From an uncultured Muribaculaceae bacterium (GTDB taxonomy: Bacteria > Bacillota_I > Bacilli_A > RF39 > UBA660): a DNA stretch of 64,000 nucleotides. A program made the position numbers and the translations under genes. The DNA is taken from NCBI GenBank assembly GCA_964407685.1, contig CAYOWI010000003.1, positions 1,681 through 65,680 of the forward strand. Reading direction: 5' to 3'. The notes beneath the pieces were generated by a model. That model was given only the letters and a program-made list of their open reading frames with translations. It was not told where the DNA came from and did no database searches. This document shows positions 8,948-64,000 of the stretch, in pieces. Positions within the stretch are counted from its first letter, which is position 1. Each line of letters starts with the position of its first letter.

Positions 8948-11149
8948 CTACTCTTCTGTATTTTCTTCTTTCTTTTTAATTTCTTTCTTTTCTGACTTTT
9001 CGTCTTTTATTTTATCTTTTACTAAAACTTCTTTTCTAGATAAGTTTAGTTTACCATTTTTAAATCCTGTTGCTTTAACGATGATATCATCTCCTTCAGA
9101 TACCACATCTGATGCTTTTGCAACTCTCTTATCAGATAATTGAGAAATATGAACTAATCCTTCGCATCCTTCCCAAAGTTCTACGAAACATCCTAATTCA
9201 TCAATTACCTTAACTACACGACCAGTATAAATTTTACCTACTTCAACTTCCTTTACTACGTTTCTTATCATTTCAGCAGTTCTATCAATTATTTCTTGGT
9301 CGGTATGATAAATAATTACCCTTCCATCTTCTTCTATATCTACCTTAACAGCGTTCATGTCAGTTACTGTTTCAACGTTTGAAGACTCAAGTATTATCTT
9401 AGTAATCATTTCTCCACCCTTACCAATTACGTCTTTTATTTTTAATGGATCAATAGTAAAGACAAGAGTCTTAGGAGCATACTTACTAACTTCTTTTCTT
9501 GGTTCTTTAATTTGTTTAGCAATTACTTTTAATATTTCAAGTCTTGCCTTTTTAGCTTGTGCTAAAGCTTCTTTTAAAATTTCTTTAGTTATACCTTTAA
9601 TTTTAATATCCATTTGAAGTGCACAAATACCATCTTTTGTTCCTGCAACCTTAAAGTCCATGTCTCCTAAGTGGTCTTCCATACCTTGGATATCAGTTAA
9701 AATTGTATAATCATCACCATCGGTAATAAGTCCCATTGCAATACCTGCAACTGGTGCTTTAATAGGAACACCTGCCGCCATAAGAGCCATACAACCAGCA
9801 CAAATAGAAGCTTGTGATGATGAACCATTACTTTCTAATATTTCAGATACAACACGGATTGTATATGGGAATACTTCTTCTGATGGAATTACTTGTAAAA
9901 GCGCTCTTTCTCCTAATGCACCATGGCCTACTTCACGACGTCCTGGAGCACCATATCTACCTGTTTCACCAACAGAGAATTGTGGGAAGTTATAATGTAA
10001 CATAAATCTTTTTTGATCTTCTGGTGATAATCCATCAATTATTTGATGTTCTCCGAGTGCCCCTAGTGTTACAACAGATAAACTTTGAGTTTCACCTCTC
10101 GTGAATAACGCTGAACCATGAGTTCTTGGAAGTAAATCTATGTCTGTAGAAAGTGGTCTTATTTCGGTCATCTTTCTTCCGTCAGCTCTCTTTTTTTCTT
10201 TAACTACTATCTTTCTAAATACGTCGTATTCAACTTCTGCTAAGCAAAGTTTAACCTTAGTTAGTAACTCATTAAGCTCTTCTTTTTCCATTTCTTCATT
10301 TTCATATTCAAATTTAGCTACAACGTCTTCTTTAACTTTATCAATAGCTTCATATTTTTCTAACTTATCTTTAATACGCATAGCTTTATCAAGTGGTTCT
10401 TTAGCAAGACTTTGAATTTCTTCTTTAAGTTCGTCAGTTATTTCAAGAACGTCATATTCCATCTTTTCCTGACCAACTTCTTTAATAATCTTTTCTTCAA
10501 ATTTAATTAATTCTTTTATAGCATCATGTCCAAACATTAAAGCATCTAACATATCGTCTTCTGAAGCCTCTTTAGCCCCTGCTTCTACCATGTTTATAGC
10601 ATCTTTTGTTCCTGCTACGGTTAAATCGATATCACTTTTGTCTAACTCATCTACACTAGGATTAATAACGAATTTTCCATCTACTCTTCCTACTTTAACA
10701 CCAGCGATAGGGCCATCAAAAGGCACTTTACTTATACACGTTGCTATACTAGAACCAAGCATTGCAGTAAGTTCTGGTGAATTATCAGGGTCAACTGATA
10801 ATACGGTATTTACAACCTGAACTTCATTTCTAAAGTTTTCTGGGAATAATGGACGCATTGGTCTATCAATCATTCTTGCGGCAAGTGTTGCGTTCTCTGT
10901 TGGTCTTCCTTCCCTTTTAATAAATCCACCTGGTATCTTACCTACTGAGTATAACTTTTCTTGGTATAAAACCATAAGTGGAAAAAAGTCAGATAACACG
11001 TTAGCTGTTTTACTTACACAAACGGTAGATAAAACAACTGTATCACCATATCTTACTAACACTGCCCCATGAGCTTGTTTAGCTAATTCTCCTACTTCAA
11101 CGGTTAAAGTTCTTCCTCTAAATTCTGTTTCAAATATTCTTTTTTCCAT
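8948..11149 (-). CDS. pnp: Polynucleotide phosphorylase
   Basis: 733 aa with two RNase PH domains, a KH domain (GKGGEMI) and an S1 domain ([16 protein letters not shown]). Confidence 0.97.
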
Positions 11150-13249: not shown

Positions 13250-13480
13250 AAAGCAAAATTAAAATTTTGCGCATTGGTCGTCACCGATCAAACATTCCTG
13301 CCTCATAGATAAAGTATCCTTTATTCTCACACAGGCTTAAATTCCGATAGTCGCTACCGTACTCGTTCTTTTAATTTTTTATATTTTTATTTTATCCTAT
13401 TTATTATTTTATATCAAGACCTCATTCATGTACATTTTTAATCCTTCAAACATTATGTTTATACTTGCATTTATATCCCT
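13250..13480 (-). ncRNA. Putative TnpB-associated omega-RNA (reRNA); boundaries approximate
   Basis: Covers the 3' end of tnpB plus a conspicuously GC-richer 100-nt block (13269-13368) in a very AT-rich background. Local hairpins include CGGUAG-cga-CUAUCG and GGU-gacg-ACC. The position matches the known omega-RNA location at the IS right end. Confidence 0.45.
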
Positions 13481-14545
13481 ATCATTCACACTTCCACAAC
13501 AATCACATTTCCAACTTCTTACGTTTAAGTTATTGGTCTTTTTTGTTTTGTTATTACAATGATTACATATTTTGCTACTCGGAAAATAACTATCTACTTG
13601 ATAATAGTATTTTCCTTTTTCTTTTGACTTCCACTTTAACATCTCGCATATCTTATTAAAACTTGCATCTAGTATATTTTTAGTTAGAGTGTGGTTGTTA
13701 TGCATATTTTGTACTTGTAATTTTTCAGAGATTATTATGTCATAATCTTTTACTAATTTATTTACTATTGTTATGATATTATGACGCCTAGCATTTTTTA
13801 TCTTACTATGAACTTTTGATATTAATATCTTTGTCTTGTTATAGTTGTTGCTTCCTTTTATTTGCCTTGATAGTTTTCTTTGTAATCTTTTTAGTTTCTT
13901 TTCTCTTTTATCTAGTTCTTTTGGATTTTTATATTTTTCTGCATCTGACGTTACTACTATATCTTTTACGCCTAAGTCTATTCCTACTATACTTGTTGGT
14001 TTTATCTTTTTTATATTTACTTCTTTTTCAGAGGCTAAAATACTTACGTAGTATTTACCTGCAGTTTCTTTTGTTATGCAAGCATTTATTATGGTTCCTT
14101 TTATATATTTTAAATTTCTATATCCTCTAATATCCACTAATCCTAGTTTTGGCAGTTTTATTTGTTTATTTTTTAAATCTAGTTTTATATTACTATATTC
14201 TTTACCTTTATAAGTACTTCTTATGGCATTTGTTCTATAGCTTTGTTTGTAATATTTACTTTTTAGCTTAGGATATGATGATCTTTTTGAAAAGAAGTTT
14301 TTAAAACTATCTTCTAGGTTAAATATGGCACATCTTATTGAACATGAATCCACCTCTTTTAACCATGGACATTCTTCTTTTAAATCCTTTAACATATTAC
14401 ACATATCATATGCCTTTATATATCTATTATCTTTACATTTATCTAAAAAATAATTATAGATGAACCTTGCACATCCAAATGTTTTATTTATCAAAATACT
14501 TTGCTGGGCACTTGGATACATTCTAAATTTATATGCTTTGTACAT
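13409..14545 (-). CDS. tnpB: IS200/IS605-family TnpB (OrfB) RNA-guided endonuclease
   Basis: 378 aa. N-terminus MYKAYKFRMYPSAQQ...FGCARFIYN. RuvC-I IVGIDLGVKD, RuvC-II IISEKL, zinc finger CNHC...CDCC, RuvC-III DRDINASINI. Confidence 0.92.
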   Translation of the reverse strand: MYKAYKFRMYPSAQQSILINKTFGCARFIYNYFLDKCKDNRYIKAYDMCNMLKDLKEECPWLKEVDSCSIRCAIFNLEDSFKNFFSKRSSYPKLKSKYYKQSYRTNAIRSTYKGKEYSNIKLDLKNKQIKLPKLGLVDIRGYRNLKYIKGTIINACITKETAGKYYVSILASEKEVNIKKIKPTSIVGIDLGVKDIVVTSDAEKYKNPKELDKREKKLKRLQRKLSRQIKGSNNYNKTKILISKVHSKIKNARRHNIITIVNKLVKDYDIIISEKLQVQNMHNNHTLTKNILDASFNKICEMLKWKSKEKGKYYYQVDSYFPSSKICNHCNNKTKKTNNLNVRSWKCDCCGSVNDRDINASINIMFEGLKMYMNEVLI

Positions 14546-34374: not shown

Positions 34375-34722
34375 TTATAAACAATTAACCGCACTTTCAA
34401 TTAAGATTTCCAATTCCGTATCACTAACGTTTATCTTCTTTTCTTTCATCCATTCCAACGACTTTTCTAGAGCCTTGTTCTTTTTTTCAGCACAACTTAA
34501 ATCTTTACCTACTTGTTCAACATATTTAACCGTTTTTTCAACTATATCTCTTTTAACTTTATCCTGAATAAAGTCCTGATATAAGTTTTTAATCCTTATT
34601 CCTAAATACCCAATAACACCGGTAATTACTGTACTTACAATTTGAATAAGATTATCAGAAATTAAACCAATAATATCACTCAAGCCAAACTCCCCCAAAT
34701 TTAAATAAAGATGCATCTTCAT
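34375..34722 (-). CDS. Phage holin, LL-H-like family (single N-terminal TM)
   Basis: TM VSTVITGVIGYLGI followed by a charged helical tail (VKYVEQVGKDLSCAEKKNKALE), as in LL-H holins. Isolated gene beside tRNAs. Confidence 0.5.
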   Translation of the reverse strand: MKMHLYLNLGEFGLSDIIGLISDNLIQIVSTVITGVIGYLGIRIKNLYQDFIQDKVKRDIVEKTVKYVEQVGKDLSCAEKKNKALEKSLEWMKEKKINVSDTELEILIESAVNCL

Positions 34723-34796: not shown

Positions 34797-34873
<77 letters not shown>

Positions 34874-34878
34874 ATAAA

Positions 34879-34925
34879 TGGCGCTCACGATGAGAGTTGA
34901 ACTCATGACCTTTACCTTCGGAGAA
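34879..34925 (-). other. 3' fragment of a tRNA-Arg(CCG)-like gene: candidate att junction of the ICE
   Basis: The minus strand reads CUCCGAA (anticodon loop)-GGUAA-AGGUC-AUGAG-UUCAACU-CUCAU-CGUGAGC-G-CCA. No matching 5' half (anticodon-stem 5' strand, D-arm, acceptor 5' strand) follows. The integrase gene starts its 3' end 240 nt away. Confidence 0.6.
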
Positions 34926-35166
34926 CTTCGGAAAACAATTGTCATAATTTCAAACTCTCTTTGTTTTTTCTAAAAGCCTTATTTTATTTATAAAAAAGGC
35001 TTCTTTTTTTTACTTATTTTTTTAAACTTTTGGAGTTTTTGAAACCTTTTTTCTAAATATCGCGACAAATTCGCGAATTTAAATTTAAAATTTCTATCCT
35101 AATACTTAGAAGCCTTTTTATAATTAAATTATAACATAACTCTTCCTCTTAATACAATTGCAAACA

Positions 35167-36936
35167 TCATTTTATAGAGCATAATATAAATTCAGAACCA
35201 TACATTTCTTCTTGTTCCTCTAACCAATCAAATACATTATCTAAACTAACATTTGATATATTTATACTCTTAAATATCGGATATCTATTATCAATATAAT
35301 CCTTTATTAAAGAATATTTATAATCATTCTTATCATCTGAATTAACAGCAAAATTTAGCAATTCATTTATTTCATTAGTAGATGTAAATTTGACTCTTGT
35401 ATATAATGAAAGCATTTGATTAAATCCTACTTTTTGTTCTCTATTCGTATTATAGTATTTATCAAAAATCGACACTGCATCCTCTTTTTTATCCTTATTA
35501 GAATGAGTATAATGAAATGTTGTAGTTAACTGAGAGTGTCCCATTAGGCGTTTAACATCAGCAGGGGCTAAGTTAGGATTTTCATTCATTTGAATTGTAC
35601 AATAACTATGTCTCAACCCATGTAGAGAAACATTTTTTATATATGGATATTTTTTTCTGAAATCTAACCATTTACTACTAGGTGTATCAGGAAACATAAT
35701 ACCTCCAGTTTTACTTAAAAATAAATTTTTTGGAGGTATATAACCTTTAATTTTTCTTTTAAATCTAGTTATTATTCTTAAACGTAGTTTTAAATATTCC
35801 TTAATAACTTCTGTACAGAAAATTGGAATAGGAATATCACGGACACTGCCTTTTGTTTTAGTTTCCTTCTCTATTACTTTACGTTTTTTTTCGTCCCATA
35901 CAACTGCCCTTCTAATACTAATAACATTATTATTAAAATCTATATCATCAGTATGAAGTCCGATTAATTCTCCTCGTCTTACACCAGTGCATATCGCAAT
36001 AGTAAACAAAGTTTCAGTTAAAATATCTTCAGTTTTTAATAGTTCTAATACTTCTAATAATTCCTCCCTATTATAAGATAATTTTTCTTCTTTAGATACA
36101 CCTGGTGCTTTAACCTTTAAAACTGGATTCTTTTCTATATAGTCCCATTCTTGTGCTTTATTTAATATCTTTCTCAACAAACAATAAATATTATTTATTG
36201 TTGATAATGATAACTTAACTTTATTACCATTTTTATCTGGTCTTAAACTATATTTTTCTTTAAGTGAATTAACTATTCTTTGAACTGTTAATACGCTTAT
36301 TTTATCTAAATATACATTTGCAAGTTCAGGAAGTATATAATTTTTCAAATCTACTTTTCCACTCCTTACTGTTGTAGGGCTAAGTTCCTTTTCTGCATAT
36401 TCTTTATAATAAATTCTTGCAAAATCAATAAACTTAATATTCCTACTATTATTTTTCTTTAACTTTAATTCTGCTAATTTTTTATCTCTTTCCTTTCTTG
36501 ATTGTGCTAATGTTCCCTCAAATACTGCAGAATAATAATCTCCTTTTTTTCCATTAGAGCCTCCTTTTCTAATGAATATTCTATATTTCTTTCCTTTTTC
36601 AATTTCATATATATATTTATCAACTTTTTTTGTATTTGTTATAGTTGTTTTATTATTTGGCTTCTTTGGTTTGTTATTTACTTTCTTAGATTTATCTTTA
36701 TTATAATCTTCCAAAATACAAGTAATTTCACTCTTTTTTTCTAAAAATAAACCATTTTCCTCTAACTTCTTATCTCTTAAAAATATAGCATCTTCAAGTG
36801 ATCCATCTATATATTGATCAAAGTTAATTCTTTTATTGTTTTTTTTATCAACTTTTAAAAATTTAACTCTATATTTATCTTCAGATACATAATAAATATA
36901 TTTTTCTACTCTTTCTTGCATAATTTCTCCGTTCAA
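35167..36936 (-). CDS. int: Tyrosine recombinase/integrase (589 aa, extended N-terminus)
   Basis: Catalytic-domain signatures TGVRRGEL (Arg), HGLRHSYCT, GHSQLTTTFHYTH (His/Tyr). Confidence 0.9.
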   Translation of the reverse strand: MNGEIMQERVEKYIYYVSEDKYRVKFLKVDKKNNKRINFDQYIDGSLEDAIFLRDKKLEENGLFLEKKSEITCILEDYNKDKSKKVNNKPKKPNNKTTITNTKKVDKYIYEIEKGKKYRIFIRKGGSNGKKGDYYSAVFEGTLAQSRKERDKKLAELKLKKNNSRNIKFIDFARIYYKEYAEKELSPTTVRSGKVDLKNYILPELANVYLDKISVLTVQRIVNSLKEKYSLRPDKNGNKVKLSLSTINNIYCLLRKILNKAQEWDYIEKNPVLKVKAPGVSKEEKLSYNREELLEVLELLKTEDILTETLFTIAICTGVRRGELIGLHTDDIDFNNNVISIRRAVVWDEKKRKVIEKETKTKGSVRDIPIPIFCTEVIKEYLKLRLRIITRFKRKIKGYIPPKNLFLSKTGGIMFPDTPSSKWLDFRKKYPYIKNVSLHGLRHSYCTIQMNENPNLAPADVKRLMGHSQLTTTFHYTHSNKDKKEDAVSIFDKYYNTNREQKVGFNQMLSLYTRVKFTSTNEINELLNFAVNSDDKNDYKYSLIKDYIDNRYPIFKSINISNVSLDNVFDWLEEQEEMYGSEFILCSIK

Positions 36937-39573: not shown

Positions 39574-39906
39574 TTAACAATCATTATTTTTTTCAATATT
39601 CTCTCTAACCTTTTCTAGTACTTGATAGTAATCAATTTCTTCTATAATATTACTGGTATATAGCAAGAATTGAGAAATAATATCAATTGCTTCATTTATA
39701 TATAATCTTACATCTATTTCTATATCATTATTAATATTCCTTGGTACACTATACCTTAATAATTTTTCCTTAGTTAACTTTGCTAAATCTCTTTCATTTT
39801 CATCAATTTGCTTTTCAATATTTTTTGTTAATACACCTATTAAATTATTATATTCTTTTTTATTTAACATTAATTTTATTGGTGGTATTCTCTTTGAATA
39901 TGCCAT
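39574..39906 (-). CDS. Hypothetical protein (110 aa)
   Basis: ORF between the two sigma-like genes, with its own terminator. Confidence 0.45.
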   Translation of the reverse strand: MAYSKRIPPIKLMLNKKEYNNLIGVLTKNIEKQIDENERDLAKLTKEKLLRYSVPRNINNDIEIDVRLYINEAIDIISQFLLYTSNIIEEIDYYQVLEKVRENIEKNNDC

Positions 39907-40010
39907 TTTTTATTCTCCTTTTCCGATCAATTTGTTGTGTAACTTTTAGCCATATTTTTTTAAATATAATTATATTTTTGCATTATAGGATAAAAGAGAA
40001 AAAATCCCTT

Positions 40011-40529
40011 TCACTTATTTCCCCACTCATAAAAGAAATTGCAGACACTTTTTTTATTTTTTAATATTTTTTTTAAATTTTTCTTAGCCCTCTCTAAAAT
40101 AATATGTACTGATTGATGAGTACTATTTTCTTCTTTAGCAATTTCAATTTCGTTTTTACCTTCAAAATAATATTTTTTTATTCTTCTCTTTTGAATAATA
40201 GGTAGTTTTTCAATAGCCATATATAGTTCGGAAAAAGCTATTTCTTTAATAACTTGTTCTTCTACACTTTCAACTTTATAATTTGTTCTTTTATATAATC
40301 TCTCATCGTCTAATTCAGAATGCTCTATATGTCTTTCATATTCATGCATTTGTGATATATCAATTAATTCAAAACTATTAAATGCATTATAAACTTCTTC
40401 ACTTATCTCAACTGTTTTATTTTCTTTAATACCATTATTAAAAGAAATAATATATATTTTCTCATTTTTATTATATTGTAATATATAAGGATTATCTCTA
40501 TCCTTTCTTCTTTTTGGATGATTATCCAT
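40011..40529 (-). CDS. ICE sigma-70 region-4-like HTH regulator, copy 2 (172 aa)
   Basis: Paralog of 38646..39116. Shared motifs RRKDRDNPY, ERHIEHSELDDERL, LPIIQKRRIKKYYFEGKNEIEIAKEENSTHQSVHIIL.RAKKNL. Confidence 0.7.
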   Translation of the reverse strand: MDNHPKRRKDRDNPYILQYNKNEKIYIISFNNGIKENKTVEISEEVYNAFNSFELIDISQMHEYERHIEHSELDDERLYKRTNYKVESVEEQVIKEIAFSELYMAIEKLPIIQKRRIKKYYFEGKNEIEIAKEENSTHQSVHIILERAKKNLKKILKNKKSVCNFFYEWGNK

Positions 40530-40941: not shown

Positions 40942-41346
40942 TCAGTTATTTTTATCACTCTCTTCAGAATTTAACTTTTCTAATGATTTATATAGAGCTT
41001 TTGGTATTTTTATTCCCATTTCACTACCATTTTCTAAAATAGAAAGCATTTCATTAAAAATAAATGATATTATTACTAATGTTCTTAATCCGCCATTTAT
41101 ATTAAGTAATTGATCTAATAAAACTGATAATGCAATTATACATAAATAGGCAACTTTCTTTATAATTCCTTTAGCACCAATACTACTATTTACCTTATTT
41201 TGAATAAAAGACTTACAAACACCAGTTATATAATCTAGCAACATTAACGCAAGTATTGTTTTTAATAAAAAATCAAAATCACCAAACAAAAATACGAAAA
41301 AAGTTCCAATAGCACTGCTTAATTTAATAATAATACTTTTCATCAT
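40942..41346 (-). CDS. Holin, phage_holin_4_1 (toxin-secretion/phage-lysis, TcdE-type) family
   Basis: Three TM segments. Family pattern LLDYITGVCKSF...NSSIGAKGIIKKVAYL...LLDQ...FIFNEMLSILENGSEMGIKIP. SD AGGAGA precedes ATGATG at 41346/41343. Confidence 0.85.
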   Translation of the reverse strand: MMKSIIIKLSSAIGTFFVFLFGDFDFLLKTILALMLLDYITGVCKSFIQNKVNSSIGAKGIIKKVAYLCIIALSVLLDQLLNINGGLRTLVIISFIFNEMLSILENGSEMGIKIPKALYKSLEKLNSEESDKNN

Positions 41347-41437
41347 ATCATCTCCTTTCAACAATAAATAAAATTTTAAAATTAAATATACATCTAATAT
41401 TTTATTATTACATACATTAACAAATCATATTTCAACA

Positions 41438-42031
41438 TTAAATTTCTAAAATTTGTCCTGGCTTAATTAAATTAGGATTTTCTCCAATAATAGCTTTATT
41501 TTTTTCATAAATTTTATTCCATGTAGTTTCAAATTTTTCTGCTATATCGTATAATGTATCCCCATAAACAACTTTATATCTTATATTTCCTTTTGTTTTA
41601 TTTGGTTGATAATCATAACTATGTGGGTCTTGGTAGTTATCCCCATCACTATCTTTCATTCCTAAATGTAAGTGGATTCCAGTTGCTTTTCCAGTCATAC
41701 CGGTATATCCTAATATGGTTTCTTCATCCACTTTTTCTCCAGTTTTAACACAAATACTATCTAAATGATAGTGTAAAAGTTTTTTATTAATTCTCGGATA
41801 ATTAACCCAAACAAACTTGGCACCATCACTTGCAATCCCACAGCTAATTATTACCCCATCTTCTAATGCATATTGTGGCCATTTTTCTCTATTAGTACCA
41901 TAATCACAACCATAATGATATTTACCAGTAATACCATTTCTTGTAATAATGCTTTTTCTATTTCCGAATGATGATGTTACATACCAATCGTCTCTTTTAA
42001 AGATTTTACTTGCTAATTTCAATTTAATCAC
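41438..42031 (-). CDS. M23 (LytM) metallopeptidase plus C-terminal LysM, no signal peptide
   Basis: HxxxD (HYGCDYG) and HxH (HLHLG) zinc motifs. LysM YKVVYGDTLYDIAEKF...IKPGQILEI. The N-terminus is hydrophilic. Confidence 0.85.
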   Translation of the reverse strand: MIKLKLASKIFKRDDWYVTSSFGNRKSIITRNGITGKYHYGCDYGTNREKWPQYALEDGVIISCGIASDGAKFVWVNYPRINKKLLHYHLDSICVKTGEKVDEETILGYTGMTGKATGIHLHLGMKDSDGDNYQDPHSYDYQPNKTKGNIRYKVVYGDTLYDIAEKFETTWNKIYEKNKAIIGENPNLIKPGQILEI

Positions 42032-42096
42032 CTCTTATCTCTTATTTTAATAATCAAAAAAATCAAATCATAAAACTCTTTTTCAACATTAGCAAT

Positions 42097-42138
42097 ATAA
42101 AAAAAGAGGAATGCATTATTATCAAAATGCATTCCTCT
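42097..42138 (-). terminator. Strong rho-independent terminator after the lipoprotein gene
   Basis: Perfect 13-bp stem AGAGGAATGCATT/AATGCATTCCTCT (42105-42138) followed by U7 on the minus strand. Confidence 0.7.
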
Positions 42139-42161
42139 TTTATAATTTTCTATGGTAATAA

Positions 42162-42731
42162 TTAAGTTTCTACTTCACAAATGGTAGATTCTAAAGAGCA
42201 TTTTACATATTTAATTTCACCAGAGAAATCACCTTTTTCTCCTTCGAAATATATATAACCATTTTGTATTTTATAAATTCTAGCGTTGTATAAATTTACT
42301 TTTGTAGTTAAATCCCTTCTCTGAGTATTTATTCCATCTAAAGTATACTCGTAGATTTTACCACCAGAGCACCTAGAAATATATAATTTATTACCTGAAA
42401 AATAAGTATATTTTTCAGAACTATAAGCATTTGCATTACAAGACTCGTATTCATCTATTTTAATATAATCATTTTCTTTAACTTTCATAAATATACCATC
42501 TTTTATCATTTCACTACCCTCTTGAGAAATATCAGTAACAATATAAATTTCTTTTTCTTTTGTCTTATCACTTATAGTTTCATAAACCATAGATTTAATG
42601 TCTCTATTTTTTAAATCATAATGCTTAATATTTGCATATCTATTTTTATTACATCCAAAAACACAAAAAGTTAAAATAAAAATTAAAATCGCTTTTTTCA
42701 CACATATCACCATAATCATTATATCATACAA
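42162..42731 (-). CDS. Lipoprotein (candidate immunity/accessory protein)
   Basis: Signal peptide KKAILIFILTFCVFGC with a lipobox Cys. It starts 20 nt after the 747-aa gene. Confidence 0.65.
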   Translation of the reverse strand: MYDIMIMVICVKKAILIFILTFCVFGCNKNRYANIKHYDLKNRDIKSMVYETISDKTKEKEIYIVTDISQEGSEMIKDGIFMKVKENDYIKIDEYESCNANAYSSEKYTYFSGNKLYISRCSGGKIYEYTLDGINTQRRDLTTKVNLYNARIYKIQNGYIYFEGEKGDFSGEIKYVKCSLESTICEVET

Positions 42732-42751
42732 TGCAAATTAATTTAATATAA

Positions 42752-44995
42752 TTAATACCATGCACGGTTTACTCCTGAACTAGCATATTCTAGTCCAACG
42801 CATGCATATCCAGAGAAAGTTGTAAAAGTACTACTTCCTTTACGTTTTATTCCATTAATTCGTGTAGCCCACGGTCTTGTCCCTCCTGGATTAACTAAAT
42901 TACTTCGATTTATTCTAATATAATCTCCATTTTGAAGAGTCCCAACATAATTACCATTTGGATCTATGTAAACTACTGGTTTATTAATATAAAAATCACG
43001 ATATGATGAACTATCATAATTATGAAGAATATAACTATCAGTAGAAGGTACATATTCAACGCAAGTAAATGGTTCATGCCCTACTAATATTTGAGCATCA
43101 ACAACATCGTCATTAGCTGGGTCATCTTGCATACCTGCGGGAATATATTGTTCTCTAATATATCCCGTTTTTACATCTGTTCCATCATTAAACATAACCT
43201 TATGAACATTATCATTTTGAGGTTGCTCAACCGCATATCTTACATACATATCATGTGGTCTTATATATCCAATAATATTACCAGCTGGATTATATTCAAA
43301 CACTTCTGGTTCAGAAGGTAAATTAATCTCTTTTCTTTCATATACTGGAACCGATTCTTGAGTCATATTGATTAAAATTCTACAATGTCTTTCTAATGTG
43401 TGTGAATTATCATTAGTTTTAGAATATTCTTGAGATATTCCACTATATTGCCCTGAATATCCGTTTTTATCTATTTCTATAGATTGACCATTTGAAGAAA
43501 TTGTCGTCGTTGCAAACTGATCTAATGCCCAATTATCTGGTATAGAAAATCCAAGGTTTCCACTATAACCAGTAGACATATCGCTAACAAAACTACTACA
43601 AGCATATCCAGCTTTGCATACTCTAGAACATACATTTCTAGTTCCATAAACCCCAATCCTATATTTTGCTTTACCATTGAAAACCAAAGATTTACGAACA
43701 GCTTCAAAATAAGGAAGTATATTATTTGTAATTTCAGTATCTGTTGCATCATAATCTACCGCAAAATAAATAATTGTACCAAACTGTAATTGTAAATTAT
43801 CAGCTGCTATTGCCGCTGCCGATGCATCTGTTGTTCCTTGCGTCGCATTAAAATATGAAAGATATGTCCCAGAAGTTTGGAATATAGGGAATAATCTAAT
43901 TCCATTTCCAAACAATACTTGAATTTCACTTGAGGTTATTTTTTTATCTTTCCCTCCAGAAGCATTTGTTAAATATCTTGCAATATATCTATAATTTTTA
44001 TTTAATAATACCTGAACATTACTGCTATTAATTTTAGTCATACAGTCGCAGGCAATAGCATTTCTATCTGTGTCACCACAACTTACTAATAAAGATAACC
44101 ATGTAGTATAATCAAGATTCCCTGTTTGTGGTATTCCATACTTTGATTGAAATGCTTGAATAACACTTACTGTTAGATTCGATGTTATATCTCCATTACC
44201 AAATCCATTAAAATATAAAGCAATATTAGCTATTTTTTTGAATTTATTAATTTTATCGGAACTATAATTTTGTCCACTATAATTAGTTCCAGAATATGAA
44301 CCATTTGATAAAATTGTTGGTAAACAATTTTTTGTTGATGGGCCACAATTTCCATTAGCAACAGAAGTCGGCATTCCCTCTTCCGCTTGAACCGCATATA
44401 GTACCGCTTTACTTGTATTTCTTCCATATATTCCGTCGCACGGTGATAGTCCAATATATGCTTCATAATTAGCATTCAAATATCTTTGCATGGAAATTAT
44501 GTTTTGTATTCTCTCGGATTGATCATATGAATAAAAATAATCCATAGACATTAAAGCCTTCATAACATTAAGTGTTACAGTTGAAGAAGATGCATTAATT
44601 CCAGCATCTTGTTTTAGTTTTTTTATAGCAGAACCTGTTCCTGAATAAAAATTACATGTTGGAGCTCCAGTTCCTATAGAATATCCTTTACATAATAAGC
44701 CACCTTGAATAATTCCATAAATATTTTTCTTTGTCTCATCATCGTCAGCCTGTTGCTGAACACCATTTGGATACTTATTATTAAACGCTGATATTGTACC
44801 AGCACCAAAATTATCTGCTGTTGCAGTAATACCTAATTCAATTTGTAATGCATGAAGCAATGCATAAATTGTAGGCCACCCTGTTTTTCCGTTTTCTTGT
44901 ATTTCAGTATATCCAGTTTTACCTCGATATGTTTCATTAACCCACTCTTGTACTGCGAGTACATATGGATCTCCAGTTGTAGCTTTTTCAGCCAT
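42752..44995 (-). CDS. 747-aa leaderless multidomain cell-wall protein: PG-binding repeats, a DUF1906/Rv2525c-like glycoside-hydrolase-like domain and an unknown ~200-aa C-terminal region
   Basis: Starts MAEKATTGDPYVLAVQEWVN with no signal peptide or TM. PG_binding_1-type repeat VSVIQAFQSKYGIPQTGNLDYTTWLSLL. GH-like core YRYIARYLTN..KKITSSE..GIRLFPIFQ...IIYFAVDYD...RIGVYGTRNVC...DNWALDQF. Confidence 0.75.
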   Translation of the reverse strand: MAEKATTGDPYVLAVQEWVNETYRGKTGYTEIQENGKTGWPTIYALLHALQIELGITATADNFGAGTISAFNNKYPNGVQQQADDDETKKNIYGIIQGGLLCKGYSIGTGAPTCNFYSGTGSAIKKLKQDAGINASSSTVTLNVMKALMSMDYFYSYDQSERIQNIISMQRYLNANYEAYIGLSPCDGIYGRNTSKAVLYAVQAEEGMPTSVANGNCGPSTKNCLPTILSNGSYSGTNYSGQNYSSDKINKFKKIANIALYFNGFGNGDITSNLTVSVIQAFQSKYGIPQTGNLDYTTWLSLLVSCGDTDRNAIACDCMTKINSSNVQVLLNKNYRYIARYLTNASGGKDKKITSSEIQVLFGNGIRLFPIFQTSGTYLSYFNATQGTTDASAAAIAADNLQLQFGTIIYFAVDYDATDTEITNNILPYFEAVRKSLVFNGKAKYRIGVYGTRNVCSRVCKAGYACSSFVSDMSTGYSGNLGFSIPDNWALDQFATTTISSNGQSIEIDKNGYSGQYSGISQEYSKTNDNSHTLERHCRILINMTQESVPVYERKEINLPSEPEVFEYNPAGNIIGYIRPHDMYVRYAVEQPQNDNVHKVMFNDGTDVKTGYIREQYIPAGMQDDPANDDVVDAQILVGHEPFTCVEYVPSTDSYILHNYDSSSYRDFYINKPVVYIDPNGNYVGTLQNGDYIRINRSNLVNPGGTRPWATRINGIKRKGSSTFTTFSGYACVGLEYASSGVNRAWY

Positions 44996-45073
44996 ATTTT
45001 TTCATCTCCTTTAGTATTAAAATAATCATTTAATATATAGAAAAATCAAAAATACCGTATTTAAATCCGTTCT

Positions 45074-45144
45074 AATTCACAATATTAAATTAATTGACAA
45101 TTAAATTTATGAACATGCGATTAATGTACCTTATTGTCCGGACA
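45074..45144 (-). promoter_or_regulatory. Conserved cargo-operon control module, copy A
   Basis: 28-nt box AATTCACAATATTAAATTAATTGACAAT (45074-45101; contains the 11-bp palindrome AATTGACAATT, 45092-45102), then 33 nt, then the perfect palindrome TGTCCGGACA (45135-45144). The box starts 78 nt upstream of ATG 44995. It is near-identical to copy B. Confidence 0.6.
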
Positions 45145-45332
45145 TATAAAGTTATATTAATATACTTTTATAAATAAAAAACAGTGCTAGTCAATTAAAA
45201 CGTAAGTTTAAATATTAACTAACACCGCATATTCACCATATCTATTTGTCAATATAATGATATAATATTTTTCATATATAAGTCAATCTTTTTTTATATT
45301 TTTTAATAATATTTTTTCACATAATTAAATCA

Positions 45333-46400
45333 TCAACTATCTTTAATCATTTTTATAATAGTTATTCGTTTTATTTTAATATATATTAAAGTAACAACTA
45401 ATACAAGCATAAGTAAAATAGCAAAAAAATTTTTCATTATTATAATAAAGTCAAATAAATTTTTTATATCTAACAATGAAATAAATAATAAATTTATAAA
45501 CCCAATAGTAATAGTTGAAATTATCAAGGAAAACAACAGTATAAAAATAAAGTATGATAATATCAAAATTAAAATAAATATATTACTATATCCAAATGTT
45601 TTTAAGAGCGCTATACTATAGCTTTTTTCTGCAATGTTTGAGAATAATAAAAATAAAAACATTAACAATAAAGTTATATAACATAATAAGAAAAATCCTC
45701 TTAAAATATTATTAATATCCTTGTATGTTTGTACCTCATTTTGATATGAATCATCGATAAATTCTATTGAACAATCATTATCTTTTAATTTTTTTTCAAC
45801 TTTTTTATAACTAGACCTATTATTAATTAATACAATATATCTATTACTATTTTTAATTAATTTATTGATATTGTTATCGTTAGATATATATATGTAGTAA
45901 TTATCACTCCCGGTATTAGAATATACTCCAACAATGGTTAATTCTATACTTTGATTCTCTATAATAACTTTTATTTTTTTATTTATAACATCTTCTATAT
46001 TTTTATTATTTTTACTTAAAAATTTTTCCGAAACAATGGCTTCATTATATCCTAGATTATTAATTTTTCCTTTAACTAAATTTAATTTAATTAAGGGGTT
46101 TATAAATTTAAAACTACATTTATCAAATTTATTACATTTAGCATAAAATGAGCCTGTATTATAAGATACATCTTGAACATTCGGAAGGGATTTAATTAAT
46201 TTAGATTTATCCGTCCCATCATTACTAATAACATACATTGCTCTATTCTCAATTTTATTTATTATTTGTATATCTACTTTCCTTTCAGTTGAATTTATAA
46301 TTAATGCTATAATATTTATTACAAAAATCATGAAAGAGAATAATAAAATATAATATTTAGCTTTATCTGTTTTAATAGTTTTAAATAATAAATTAAACAT
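45333..46400 (-). CDS. ABC transporter permease, FtsX/MacB-like (355 aa)
   Basis: N-terminal TM, a ~200-aa extracytoplasmic domain and three C-terminal TMs (FtsX topology). Confidence 0.7.
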   Translation of the reverse strand: MFNLLFKTIKTDKAKYYILLFSFMIFVINIIALIINSTERKVDIQIINKIENRAMYVISNDGTDKSKLIKSLPNVQDVSYNTGSFYAKCNKFDKCSFKFINPLIKLNLVKGKINNLGYNEAIVSEKFLSKNNKNIEDVINKKIKVIIENQSIELTIVGVYSNTGSDNYYIYISNDNNINKLIKNSNRYIVLINNRSSYKKVEKKLKDNDCSIEFIDDSYQNEVQTYKDINNILRGFFLLCYITLLLMFLFLLFSNIAEKSYSIALLKTFGYSNIFILILILSYFIFILLFSLIISTITIGFINLLFISLLDIKNLFDFIIIMKNFFAILLMLVLVVTLIYIKIKRITIIKMIKDS

Positions 46401-46409
46401 AAAAATACA

Positions 46410-47603
46410 TTACCATTTTTTTATTTTATATCTAAGGAAGAAAGTCATTATAAGGCAAATAATAGATGATAAGAGTAAGTTTAAGTACATGGCTATATAA
46501 TTTATTTTAATTCTTAAATCATAAAACATTATTTTTTCAGAAATATATAACCTTTGAAAAATTATTATTATAATATTATAAAATAATATTGAACATAAAA
46601 AAGCAAATATAAATTCCAACATAAGTTCTACAATATATATTTTCGTTATTTGTGAATTTGAATAACCAGTTGCTTTCATAACTGAATAATCTTTTTTTCT
46701 TTTATTTATTTTTTTTATAGACATATAAGTTATTAATGCTATTGATAAAACTACAATGATTCCTGATACTATAAATATCAATGAAATAACATTATTGCCT
46801 AGTTCTTTATTTATATGTAAAGTAGGCATAATTATTTCAATCCCGTCTTTCTTCATTTCTTGCACTACTAAATTTTCATTATCTACATTATCTATTACCA
46901 TATACACAAAATTCTTATACGGATTTTTTTCTAAAAATATATCAGGTTGATATTTTTTATTTAGTTTTTTAACAACATCTAATTTTGTATAACATACATT
47001 CCCTTCTGTATGATTTGCTTTAGCATCGTATAAACCAACAATTTTAAACCGTTCCAAACTAGTAGAAGTAAGGAACGATAAATTTATATTTTTTCCTAAT
47101 TTATTAGTTATATCTATGCTTTTAGATGTCAGATAATCCTTTTGGTATTTTTCTACAAAAGGGTAAAATTGCTTTGCACAAATAATAGGATTTTCATTTA
47201 ATGATACGCTGTTCAAGTCATTACCATATATCAACTTTATAGGATCAGAAATAGTTCCTATAAGGTGTATACTGTTATTTTCATTAACAATACCAGTATC
47301 CATCACCCGCATTGATATCATATAGGATATTTCATCAAATGCATCAACTACGTGATTATAACTTTTAATTTTTTCTATTACACTATCTATATCATACTTT
47401 TTATTATTGAATCTAACTATATACGTTCTATAATCTACTAACTTTTTTACAGTATTATTCCAATAATTATTTAACGATTTTTTAAATGAAAAGCATAATA
47501 AGGTTAAAGCAAACATAAGACCAATAAGTAAAATACTTACTATATTTTTTTTATCTCTAATGAAATTTTTAAAACCAATAGTAGCTAAATATTTATTTTT
47601 CAT
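46410..47603 (-). CDS. ABC transporter permease, FtsX/MacB-like (397 aa)
   Basis: Same topology as the downstream permease; 4-nt overlap with the ATPase gene. Confidence 0.7.
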   Translation of the reverse strand: MKNKYLATIGFKNFIRDKKNIVSILLIGLMFALTLLCFSFKKSLNNYWNNTVKKLVDYRTYIVRFNNKKYDIDSVIEKIKSYNHVVDAFDEISYMISMRVMDTGIVNENNSIHLIGTISDPIKLIYGNDLNSVSLNENPIICAKQFYPFVEKYQKDYLTSKSIDITNKLGKNINLSFLTSTSLERFKIVGLYDAKANHTEGNVCYTKLDVVKKLNKKYQPDIFLEKNPYKNFVYMVIDNVDNENLVVQEMKKDGIEIIMPTLHINKELGNNVISLIFIVSGIIVVLSIALITYMSIKKINKRKKDYSVMKATGYSNSQITKIYIVELMLEFIFAFLCSILFYNIIIIIFQRLYISEKIMFYDLRIKINYIAMYLNLLLSSIICLIMTFFLRYKIKKW

Positions 47604-48274
47604 CTTTCTTCACCTCTCAATACTCCGCTTTCAATATATATAATTTTATCAGCATATTTAGTAATTGATTCACTATGACTTACTACAACTACACATTTAC
47701 CTATTTTAGATAACTTTTTCAATAAGTTAAATATTATTTGCTCATTTCTATTATCTAAATTCCCGGTTGGTTCGTCAGCGAGAATCATTTGTGGATTATT
47801 TACCAACGCACGAGCAATAGCAACACGTTGCTTTTCTCCTCCAGATAATTCTTTGGGAAAGTGATTTGCTCTATCACACAAATTAATCATATTTAATAAA
47901 TCTTTAACTATTTTTCTCTTTTCTATTATTAATAAATCATTATTTATTAATAAAGGTAACATAATATTTTCATATACCGTTAAATTTTCATTTAAATAAC
48001 ACTCTTGAAAAACAAAACCGATTTCACTTAGTCGTAATATGTTTTTTTCTTTTTCTGTAAGAGTAGAAGTATTATGACCATTAATACATAAAATACCAGA
48101 AGTGGGCTTATCTAAAAGCCCACTTATATTAAGCAATGTAGATTTCCCACTTCCTGAAGGTCCAATTATTGCGTAAAATTTACCGGTTTCAAATTTCATA
48201 CTTACATTATTTAATGCTAAAATTTCTTTTTTTGAATTTGTAAATTTTTTATATATACCATTTAATTCAATCAC
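47600..48274 (-). CDS. ABC transporter ATP-binding protein (MacB/LolD-type)
   Basis: Walker [13 protein letters not shown], signature [15 protein letters not shown], Walker [12 protein letters not shown]. Confidence 0.92.
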
Positions 48275-48288
48275 AATATTTCCTCCTT

Positions 48289-48738
48289 CTATGCTGCTGG
48301 ATACATATAGACTTCGCTAGATTTTACGCCATCATAATAGTTTCGTCCACCAGTAGAACTATTATAAATATCACTAAAGAAAGTATAAGATCTATAACCA
48401 GCTTCATATGTTCCCATTCGTACTTCTTTACAAGTACCGTAAGTATACACAGACGTATTATATTTGTAAGCACGTCCTGTAGCCACATCCCATAATCCTA
48501 GTTCCATAGTTGTAGAACCACTTTTTCGTACACTACCACTTGAAGTATTAAAACCATCTACAGCAACACTAATTTTATTTAATCCTTGGGCATAATTACG
48601 TGATGCGCCATTATGTATAGTACCATACGGCATATTAAGAGTTGATTTCCATCCAGCAGCACTAACACTACCAGTTAATGATAAAGATGTAATTATACCA
48701 AGTAATAATACAAATACCATGTTTCTTATTCTTTTCAT
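48289..48738 (-). CDS. Secreted beta-rich protein (149 aa), candidate bacteriocin-like or ABC-associated factor
   Basis: Sec signal MKRIRNMVFVLLLGIITSLSLTGSVSA/AG. The mature ~120 aa is rich in G, S, T and Y. It is the first gene of the ABC operon. Confidence 0.6.
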   Translation of the reverse strand: MKRIRNMVFVLLLGIITSLSLTGSVSAAGWKSTLNMPYGTIHNGASRNYAQGLNKISVAVDGFNTSSGSVRKSGSTTMELGLWDVATGRAYKYNTSVYTYGTCKEVRMGTYEAGYRSYTFFSDIYNSSTGGRNYYDGVKSSEVYMYPAA

Positions 48739-48807
48739 AATTTACCTCCTTTCTTAATATTTTTATTTAATATTTAGAAAGAACCAAATCCGAAATATAA
48801 CCATTAT

Positions 48808-48877
48808 AATTCATAATATTAAATTAATTGACAATGAAAAACTTAAATATTTTTTATTTTCTATTACTGTCCGGACA
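48808..48877 (-). promoter_or_regulatory. Conserved cargo-operon control module, copy B
   Basis: AATTCATAATATTAAATTAATTGACAAT (48808-48835; 27/28 identical to copy A), then 32 nt, then TGTCCGGACA (48868-48877). The box starts 69 nt upstream of ATG 48738. Confidence 0.6.
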
Positions 48878-48976
48878 AGTAATATTAAAATAAAAAGTAT
48901 TGATCATTAATAATCTAAATCAATAGAATTATAATAATCAATACCGTATATTTTCCGTTCTTTAATTGTCAATTTT

Positions 48977-63622: not shown

Positions 63623-64000
63623 TTATATTCTGTCCCTATCACTTATCTTTTTTAATGTATTATCTTGTAATGTCCTTAAAAGATAGTCATTATAATCCTT
63701 TCCATATAATGGTGGATCATTAATTACTTCATAAAAAGGAGATAATGCAATTTTTATTGCACGTGCTGAAGAAATTCCAGCAGCATCATTATCTAAATGG
63801 AGTACTATTCTCTTAATATCCTTATAATGATCTAAATATGTAGTTAGTGTAGATGGTGCTTTACTATCTTCTATATTTTTAGAAGGACTATAAACACCAG
63901 CTAATGATATTAAAGTATCTCTTCTCCAATCTTTATTAACCATTTTAAGTAAAGTAGCATAAGATAATAAATCTATTACACTCTCAAACACATGAACTGT
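63623..64000 (-). CDS. Toprim-domain protein (DUF3991/Toprim primase-like), C-terminal part; gene continues beyond the window
   Basis: The frame is open to the window edge (..TVHVFESVIDLLSYATL..). Toprim acidic motif LHLDNDAAG. Confidence 0.7.
   Translation of the reverse strand, partial: TVHVFESVIDLLSYATLLKMVNKDWRRDTLISLAGVYSPSKNIEDSKAPSTLTTYLDHYKDIKRIVLHLDNDAAGISSARAIKIALSPFYEVINDPPLYGKDYNDYLLRTLQDNTLKKISDRDRI

Follow-up and report, generated by a model that had tools for sequence, protein, structure and literature searches.

A putative Bac41-like antibacterial cassette on an integrative and conjugative element of a low-GC spore-former

Introduction

Why does an integrative and conjugative element (ICE) carry a holin next to two leaderless proteins with peptidoglycan-related domains and a lipoprotein? 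We addressed this question for a four-gene cassette at positions 40942–44995 of a 64,000-nt stretch of contig CAYOWI010000003.1 (the whole stretch is referred to as the window). An earlier note on this DNA, made from the letters alone, had offered two readings, i.e., a holin-dependent export locus or a bacteriocin module with an immunity partner. The second is backed by homology to BacA of the bacteriolysin Bac41, by the logic of the Bac41 locus, and by a link between the C-terminal class of BacA-like proteins and the class of the gene that follows. We assign a probability of about 60% to the interpretation that the four genes form a Bac41-like antibacterial system, carried by the ICE and directed against the cell wall.

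Bac41 is a two-component bacteriolysin, of which the endopeptidase BacL1 and BacA are both secreted; the activity of BacA is undefined but needed for lysis, BacI confers immunity, and BacL2 activates transcription (bioRxiv 10.1101/2020.11.20.391417; PMC13532309; PMC7476776). Two types of the immunity gene, bacI1 and bacI2, are mentioned in PMC11808071.

Results

A Leaderless BacA-Like Effector with a Rare C-Terminal Domain

The longest gene of the cassette (42752–44995, minus strand) encodes a leaderless protein of 747 aa, hereafter the effector, which starts with MAEKATTGDPYV and is preceded by the ribosome-binding site (RBS) AAGGAG. No upstream in-frame start is possible, and no 19-residue window reaches a mean Kyte-Doolittle hydropathy of 1.5 (maximum 1.15), which agrees with the earlier description of a protein devoid of signal peptide and transmembrane (TM) segment. 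Pfam likewise recovered the peptidoglycan-binding repeats and the Rv2525c-like core that had been recognized by eye (PG_binding_1, E 8e-13; Rv2525c_GlyHyd-like, E 5.9e-46). According to an AlphaFold2 model built from a 39-sequence alignment (mean predicted local distance difference test, pLDDT, 88), the protein comprises helical peptidoglycan-binding repeats (residues 1–305, nt 44081–44995), a TIM barrel of the Rv2525c/GH25-like type (residues ~310–520, nt 43436–44068), and an all-beta C-terminal domain, the C-domain (residues ~533–747, nt 42755–43399), all encoded on the minus strand. Foldseek related the barrel to Rv2525c (4pmn, TMt 0.73) and to the GH25 enzymes Psm, SleM, and LytC, and its acidic residues D317, D414, D416, and D492 do not vary across the alignment of the family. 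A whole-family profile compared with the PDB sequences retrieved only 1sfs, as a weak match.

Residues 9–535 of the effector are 41% identical to Bac41 BacA (E 5e-109), and no similarity was found beyond residue 535; the C-termini of the two proteins are unrelated. Searching plasmids by tblastn returned 567 records with BacA homologues, 384 of which belong to Enterococcus. Since the same cassette also recurs in related ICEs, the earlier view that such a cargo is unusual for a conjugative element was overstated.

Residues ~535–747 had been left without assignment before, and they matched no Pfam, NCBIfam, or PHROG entry in our searches either. The structure prediction proposed for this part yielded an all-beta model when the C-domain was modelled alone (pLDDT 87), with weak matches only. 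The best PDB match was NlpC2 of T. vaginalis (6biq, E 4.6e-3, TM-scores about 0.2). A CHAP-domain protein and an SH3b-domain protein, both of phages, were among the weak matches (E no better than 4.6e-3, TM about 0.2), and faint SH3b-repeat-like matches were seen as well. For a recognizable toxin domain in the C-terminus, Pfam thus gave no match and Foldseek nothing stronger than NlpC2. The domain is rare: its profile retrieved 27 representative clusters among 1.84 billion proteins, and these include stand-alone, leaderless versions of ~200 aa. Such stand-alone copies were located at L026:6229–6843, L034:9647–10270, and L004:5993–6493 (L-numbers denote relative loci) and among the proteins P0137, P0139, and P0141–P0145; those in L026, L034, and L004 adjoin BacA-like genes of other C-terminal classes.

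The Lipoprotein, the Peptidase, and the Holin

The effector gene is followed by a gene for a putative lipoprotein of 179 aa (42162–42701, minus strand), the candidate cognate immunity protein. Its open reading frame (ORF) spans 42162–42731, and the likely start is the GTG at 42701, with alternative starts at 42719 and 42731. From this GTG, the product begins with MKKAILIFILTFCVFGC, a lipoprotein signal with the lipobox V-F-G-C. The lipoprotein assignment of the earlier note thus stands; its distance of 20 nt from the effector stop holds only for a start at the first TTG. Searches of Pfam, NCBIfam, and PHROG gave no match for this protein. The operon is closed by an intrinsic terminator at 42102–42141 (minus strand), which had also been noticed before and consists of a 16-pair stem with the GC-containing core GAGGAATGCATT, an 8-nt loop, and a T-run.

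The third gene (41438–42022, minus strand; ORF 41438–42031, likely start TTG 42022) encodes a leaderless M23 metallopeptidase of 194 aa with a C-terminal LysM domain (Pfam E values of 9e-11 and 8e-10, respectively). Its zinc ligands are intact (H36xxxD40 and H117xH119), and among solved structures, LytM, lysostaphin, and zoocin A come closest to it (E 1e-9 to 1e-6). We found neither a hydrophobic N-terminus or segment nor a possible upstream start. The fourth gene (40942–41346, minus strand; ORF 40942–41364, likely start ATG 41346) encodes a holin of the TcdE/Phage_holin_4_1 family with 134 aa and three to four hydrophobic segments. It scores well above the cut-offs of PF05105 (E 1.7e-36; 125.2 versus 22.2 bits) and of TIGR01593, “toxin secretion/phage lysis holin” (103.7 versus 40.2 bits), and is 37–43% identical to phage holins of Streptococcus, Clostridium, and Bacillus. 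Both genes are therefore what the earlier note had taken them for, a signal-less M23-LysM peptidase and a TcdE-type holin.

A holin is also part of the Bac41 locus, whose annotated order is bacL1 (peptidoglycan amidohydrolase), bacL2, a “phage holin family protein”, a hypothetical gene, bacA (glycoside-hydrolase-domain), and bacI (hypothetical). The window holin is 29% identical to this protein (E 8e-11). BacL1 and BacA are devoid of hydrophobic N-termini, and BacI is a 4-TM protein. The word “holin” was absent from the Bac41 papers that we searched for it, a set that lay outside the primary Bac41 papers.

Modular C-Termini and Class-Matched Partners in the BacA-Like Family

A database search yielded 1,670 effector homologues. 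When species-representative genomes were scanned, 80 loci emerged, which come from gut “Bacilli/Mollicutes” metagenome-assembled genomes (MAGs), Oscillospirales, Bacillus (YbfG/YkuG), and Actinomycetota. Across 98 BacA-like ORFs of about 700–2045 aa, the first ~520 residues, referred to as the N-module, are conserved (40–67% identity), whereas clustering divides the C-termini into at least 12 groups unrelated to one another. Ybfg_C is found in BacA and in the Bacillus proteins, and PF27189 in a second C-terminal class. The longest protein, encoded by L057 (MAG contig JAEZCO010000009, 9998–16135; 2045 aa), carries the N-module fused to DUF6531 and 18 RHS repeats, a polymorphic-toxin shell. An Oscillospirales branch of ~1770 aa possesses Sec signal peptides and C-terminal CARDB, Big_2, and InlB-B-repeat domains; the N-module therefore works outside the cell. 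Proteins of this kind were seen in L031, L035, L037–L044, L047, L049, L052, and L056, in each case followed by an N-terminally anchored protein of ~170–190 aa. A preprint describes fusions of a peptidoglycan-binding domain plus a TIM barrel resembling Rv2525c to TelC toxin domains that cleave lipid II, with genes beside them that evolve quickly (10.1101/2025.01.14.632903). A TelC identity of the Ybfg_C or PF27189/YkzU class gained no support at the sequence level, as neither query matched a TelC structure; that either class corresponds to these fusions is thus conjectural.

Clustering of the first same-strand downstream ORF revealed that its class tracks the C-terminal class across loci. The partner class of the window lipoprotein (Dcl2) follows the window-type C-terminus in 8 of 8 non-redundant members and occurs after no other C-terminal class. 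Seven of these eight partners (window, L005, L006, L007, L010, L012, and L022) share an [LVM]-[CF]-G-C lipobox and a (K/E)HY(D/N)L motif; the eighth, from L020, lacks the lipobox and instead bears a TM segment at its N-terminus. Downstream of the PF27189 class, the partners are N-terminally anchored proteins of ~190–230 aa, and the giant, Bacillus, and Actinomycete classes each have a partner class of their own. This correspondence is the pattern that would be expected of effector/immunity pairs. It also matches Bac41, in which, as reportedly found by Kurushima et al. in 2016, the C-terminus of BacA together with BacI sets immunity specificity. Within the window-type class, mean pairwise identity amounts to 61% for the N-module, 43% for the C-domain, and 35% for the lipoprotein.

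Two cassettes can also reside in one element. In the ICE represented by L085/L086, they flank the M23-holin-sigma block and have similar N-modules with different C-termini and partners. Comparison of L085:7969–8129 with 13941–14100 revealed an identical 31-nt RBS region and 82% identity over the next 108 nt, ahead of unrelated C-termini; the paired genes agree with an exchange of cassettes through recombination in the N-module. In another ICE, a 184-aa C-domain-only remnant lies ahead of the M23-holin block (L088:4055–4609; also in L089, L090, and L021), with no N-module and no lipoprotein gene. It represents a decayed first cassette in an ICE that has kept its second, PF27189-type cassette. 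A survey of homologous ICEs, as proposed earlier, gave a divided answer on whether the four genes travel together: they do so in the closest related ICE (L005; 42–67% protein identity), and parts are missing in the others.

Recurrent Linkage of Holins to Leaderless BacA-Like Genes

We surveyed the flanks of BacA-like genes (±10 kb, redundant loci removed) for PF05105 holins. The eight non-redundant holins are all located no more than 2 kb from a BacA-like gene, without exception a leaderless one. Four independent lineages are represented, namely the present ICE family (window, L005/L085, L011/L091, L017, and L021/L088), the Bac41 plasmids, L048 (an element of Oscillospiraceae that has a Tn916-type HTH_16/sigma pair), and L057 with its RHS fusion. 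As a rough estimate, uniform placement would produce four independent cases with a chance of 0.2^4, about 2e-3. No PF05105 holin was found near the Sec-signal branch (about 17 loci). The link is recurrent and non-random, yet it is not obligatory for the family, because relatives of the window’s own class have no PF05105 holin within 10 kb.

Regarding individual loci, the L057 holin (9229–9648) is divergent and located 350 nt upstream of the RHS-fusion gene. One-TM ORFs in L025 and L081 resembled BhlA/UviB-like holins by eye; they were not counted, and Pfam gave no match for the L025 peptide. In the holin-less loci L006, L007, L010, L025, L053, and L082, we observed a conserved upstream set, which may form an alternative regulatory or sensing module. 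It consists of a ~373-aa protein with an N-terminal helix-turn-helix (HTH) domain and a single TM segment, a protein of ~250 aa with a signal peptide, and an HTH protein of 72 aa. The effector/partner pairs of L012, L020, and L022 are chromosomal, non-ICE, and situated beside housekeeping genes.

The Carrier Element and Neighbouring Genes

Positions 1–34.7 kb of the window are chromosome of a spore-former with ~27% GC (ffh, ftsY, rnj, pnp, infB, nusA, spoVE/ftsW, cotZ, and cotF), and the ICE extends from 34.9 to beyond 63 kb. Its right end is formed by tRNA-Pro and a tyrosine integrase (34797–36936, minus strand), followed by a xis-like gene, two paralogous genes with sigma-70 region 4, the four-gene cassette, and an ABC/FtsX operon. 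Beyond this operon lies the transfer module with CHAP, VirB4, PrgI, a type IV coupling protein, DUF3801, a MobA-type relaxase, and a NikA/MobC protein. From this gene order, the cassette is cargo between the regulatory and transfer modules of a tRNA-integrated ICE, as the earlier note had placed it. The tRNA-Pro(cgg) gene (34797–34873) comes directly after the integrase and is the probable attachment site. The window contains, as far as its last position at 64000, no direct repeat matching its end, and the ICE probably has its left end past this position. The earlier statement that capsid, tail, terminase, and portal genes are absent nearby also holds: no phage structural genes or domains were detected among the window ORFs scanned, mostly those of at least 90 aa. 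The cassette is thus not embedded among phage late or structural genes, as would be the case for a prophage lysis cassette.

The effector operon is preceded by a control region (45040–45145, minus strand) that has three elements in common with the region upstream of the ABC operon (48796–48960); they occur nowhere else in the window. These are the perfect 10-nt palindrome TGTCCGGACA, for which 1 of 100 shuffles gave two matches, a 26-nt promoter-like element with 25 of 26 positions identical between the two regions, and the motif GAACGG-N7/8-TACGGTATT, with a spacer of eight nucleotides (N8) in front of the effector operon. Chance would be expected to yield zero matches of this kind for the two longer motifs. 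The palindrome and the promoter motif were absent from the other fetched loci except for an identical contig. The second operon (45333–48738, minus strand) comprises, by Pfam, a 149-aa signal-peptide protein, an ABC ATPase, and two FtsX-type permeases, and orthologous ABC genes adjoin BacA-like genes in L005, L016, L017, L018, and L021. The common upstream elements suggest co-regulation of the effector/lipoprotein and ABC/FtsX operons by a common regulator, and a role of the ABC system in immunity or sensing is possible.

On the other side of the cassette, a sigma-70 region-4 protein of 172 aa and a 110-aa protein are encoded at 39574–40529 (minus strand). The order of holin, sigma-like gene, and ~110-aa gene is kept in L005/L085, L011/L091, L017, and L021. 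Pfam and NCBIfam matched the sigma-like proteins to region 4 only, and no model of the TcdR/UviA/BotR family reached its cut-off. The regulatory segment 38000–40530 contains a tandem paralogous duplication with region-4 genes of 156 and 172 aa, similar flanks, and repeats about 1.4–2.0 kb apart.

Two further genes of the window lie outside the ICE. An orphan Holin_LLH gene (PF09682, phrog_608; 34375–34722, minus strand) is located between cotF-like spore-coat genes and tRNA-Pro, with no endolysin or phage genes beside it. In the chromosomal part, an IS605-family OrfB/TnpB gene with a Cas12f-like TNB domain was found at 13409–14545 (minus strand).

Discussion

A Proposed Cell-Wall-Directed Antibacterial System

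As a Bac41-like system, the cassette could work as follows. The N-module of the effector, with its peptidoglycan-binding repeats and Rv2525c/GH25-like barrel, would bind or open peptidoglycan, and the interchangeable C-domain would set the specificity of target or activity. The lipoprotein, encoded 20–50 nt downstream in the same operon, would be the cognate immunity protein, displayed on the outer face of the producer’s membrane. The leaderless M23-LysM endopeptidase would take the part of BacL1 as a co-acting lysin and may also open the producer’s own wall, and the TcdE-family holin would provide the membrane route for both leaderless proteins. Release, whether lytic or non-lytic, is probably helped by holin and hydrolase. 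Cells carrying the ICE would be protected and ICE-free neighbours killed, which would favour maintenance and spread of the element.

Several observations weigh against this interpretation. Regarding the activity, BacA has never been observed to hydrolyse peptidoglycan (bioRxiv 10.1101/2020.11.20.391417), and the C-domain gave no confident Foldseek match in PDB and BFVD, so that no fold was assigned. Regarding the kinship to Bac41, the window lysin is unrelated to BacL1, and the lipoprotein was rejected as a homologue of BacI or of Bac41 orf10 for want of any similarity. No similarity to BacL2 was found for either of the sigma-like proteins, and these match region 4 only, so that the earlier proposal of their control over the cassette gained no support. 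Regarding the pairing of effector and lipoprotein, a mirror-tree comparison of C-domain and lipoprotein was not significant (r 0.35; partial Mantel r 0.34, p 0.07–0.10, n = 8), and the class-level co-variation of C-terminus and downstream gene is partly confounded by shared ancestry. The holin link, finally, is interrupted by the terminator, which separates the effector operon from the M23 and holin genes. Both a PF05105 holin and an M23 gene are missing within 10 kb of many leaderless relatives, including L006, L007, L010, L012, L020, and L022 with the same C-domain and partner class. In view of these loci, the holin-dependent export put forward earlier is conjectural.

Some of these observations also feed the alternative that we take most seriously, although we consider it rather unlikely. 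Here, the holin, the M23-LysM peptidase, and the sigma-like gene would be a phage-derived block of the ICE backbone, and the BacA-like/lipoprotein pair an independent cassette that was inserted beside it and is released in another way. Conservation of the M23, holin, sigma-like, and ~110-aa genes as a unit with BacA-like cassettes on either side fits such a block, as do the terminator between the two parts, the upstream motifs that tie the effector operon to the ABC operon and not to the M23 or holin gene, the relatives with effector and lipoprotein but no holin, and the likeness of the holin to genuine phage holins. It would leave unexplained, however, that leaderless BacA-like genes have a holin no more than 2 kb away in four unrelated settings, among them the Bac41 plasmids and an RHS fusion. 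Furthermore, no other role is apparent for a holin and a leaderless hydrolase on an ICE whose type IV secretion system (T4SS) has its own CHAP hydrolase.

This dedicated T4SS hydrolase also speaks against the improbable reading that the cassette kills no competitors and instead remodels the wall of donor or recipient to aid conjugation, by mating-pair formation or DNA entry. The position between the transfer and regulatory modules would suit that function, BacA-like genes come directly after VirB4 and CHAP in L007, L011, and L023, and they are common on conjugative plasmids. Yet the same effector/lipoprotein pairs occur in the chromosomal non-ICE settings of L012, L020, and L022, the nearest characterized relative is a bacteriocin with an immunity gene, and C-termini swapped together with partner genes are typical of conflict systems and not of housekeeping hydrolases. 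Least of all do we expect a functionless remnant of a prophage lysis module, i.e., a holin with endolysins trapped in the ICE. Holin and M23 protein do match PHROG lysis families, and the effector matches phrog_15213, a family of unknown function, and, weakly, an endolysin PHROG. Against a remnant stand the four intact ORFs with good RBSs and intact catalytic motifs, the retention of the module in L005 at the identities given above and its recurrence elsewhere with parts missing, the absence of phage structural genes among the window ORFs scanned, and the finding of the effector by tblastn in just 2 of 50,697 phage records.

Beyond the Bac41-like reading of this one cassette, we tentatively suggest a wider scheme that is plausible to us but clearly the less probable of the two. 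In this scheme, the ~520-aa N-module would serve as the trafficking and wall-penetration head of Gram-positive polymorphic effectors (BacA, YbfG/YkuG, RHS, and TelC fusions). Its leaderless members would be exported by TcdE-type holins and a partner hydrolase in a manner resembling the type 10 secretion system (T10SS) and be spread by ICEs and plasmids, and the all-beta C-domain would be a new specificity or toxin module that is neutralized by the surface lipoprotein.

Bac41 has so far been treated as an enterococcal curiosity in which the role of the BacA component is undefined. The present locus makes BacA a member of a large family of modular proteins, whose C-termini can be swapped and whose partner genes match them; this family spans Bacillota and Actinomycetota and often resides on conjugative elements. 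Holin and partner hydrolase would offer a concrete exit route for leaderless wall-active proteins. If this route is used, export of the T10SS type would reach beyond host-directed toxins into the competition between bacteria and would help to explain how ICEs of gut bacteria enforce their own maintenance. The rare C-domain and its lipoprotein would constitute a new pair of effector and immunity protein, which may be of interest for lytic agents with a narrow spectrum.

Comparison with Known Systems

Parts of the cassette are found in several described proteins and systems. Rv2525c of M. tuberculosis has the same catalytic-like barrel as the effector, but is a single-domain, Tat-exported protein. 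YbfG and YkuG of B. subtilis have the whole N-module in common with it; they are encoded on the chromosome, end in Ybfg_C, and lack a PF05105 holin in the surrounding 10 kb. The M23 bacteriolysins lysostaphin, zoocin A, and enterolysin A share the HxxxD and HxH zinc motifs of the window peptidase, but show a Sec signal or pre-pro organization, neither of which is present in the latter. Polymorphic toxins (Rhs and LXG/TelC) combine a conserved N-module with swappable C-termini and a class-matched downstream gene, and the BacA-like family does likewise. In contrast to these toxins, the BacA-like N-module is no known secretion-targeting domain (not LXG, PT-VENN, or similar), no type VII secretion genes lie near the window cassette, and the C-domain shows no recognized toxin fold.

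Whole cassettes can be compared with two groups of loci. On a mobile element, clostridial Bcn5-type loci combine a large leaderless wall-targeting bacteriocin with a holin (UviB/BhlA), a hydrolase (amidase), and a small regulator of the sigma type (UviA) (PMC9527704). The kinds of components are the same as in the window; however, the Bcn5-type holin is BhlA and the effector M14-like, as opposed to a PF05105 holin and an Rv2525c-like effector. Type 10 secretion, known from Serratia ChiWXYZ, Salmonella typhoid toxin/ChiA, and C. difficile TcdE-TcdL, is export by a holin and a peptidoglycan hydrolase (PMC9527704, PMC12150058, PMC13284979), and lytic versus non-lytic release is still debated for TcdE (PMC12150058; PMC12485765). 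There as in the window, a TcdE-family holin, a signal-less peptidoglycan hydrolase, and signal-less cargo are co-encoded outside a prophage. The type 10 cargo is a host-directed toxin or chitinase, whereas the putative window cargo would be a wall-binding, hydrolase-like protein aimed at bacteria.

Bac41 remains the closest counterpart, and the differences from it are considerable. Its host is E. faecalis and not an uncultured-type low-GC spore-former, and its gene order is different. The Bac41 lysin BacL1 has a Phage_lysozyme+Amidase_5+SH3_5 architecture in place of M23+LysM, and no BacL1 homologue was detected in the related loci by tblastn. BacA ends in Ybfg_C (PF21015) and a hydrophobic tail, whereas the all-beta C-domain of the window effector is devoid of PF21015, and immunity is conferred by the 4-TM protein BacI and not by a candidate lipoprotein. 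On the other hand, both loci share the homologous N-module (41% identity over ~530 aa) and a PF05105 holin, pair a BacA-type effector with a second leaderless peptidoglycan hydrolase, and place a membrane-associated gene directly 3′ of the BacA-type gene. Each is carried by a conjugative element, a pheromone-responsive plasmid in the case of Bac41 and an ICE in the window. The kind of system is thus already known; new relative to Bac41 are the M23-LysM lysin that is swapped in, the rare C-terminal domain as a putative determinant of specificity, and the lipoprotein as a candidate for immunity.

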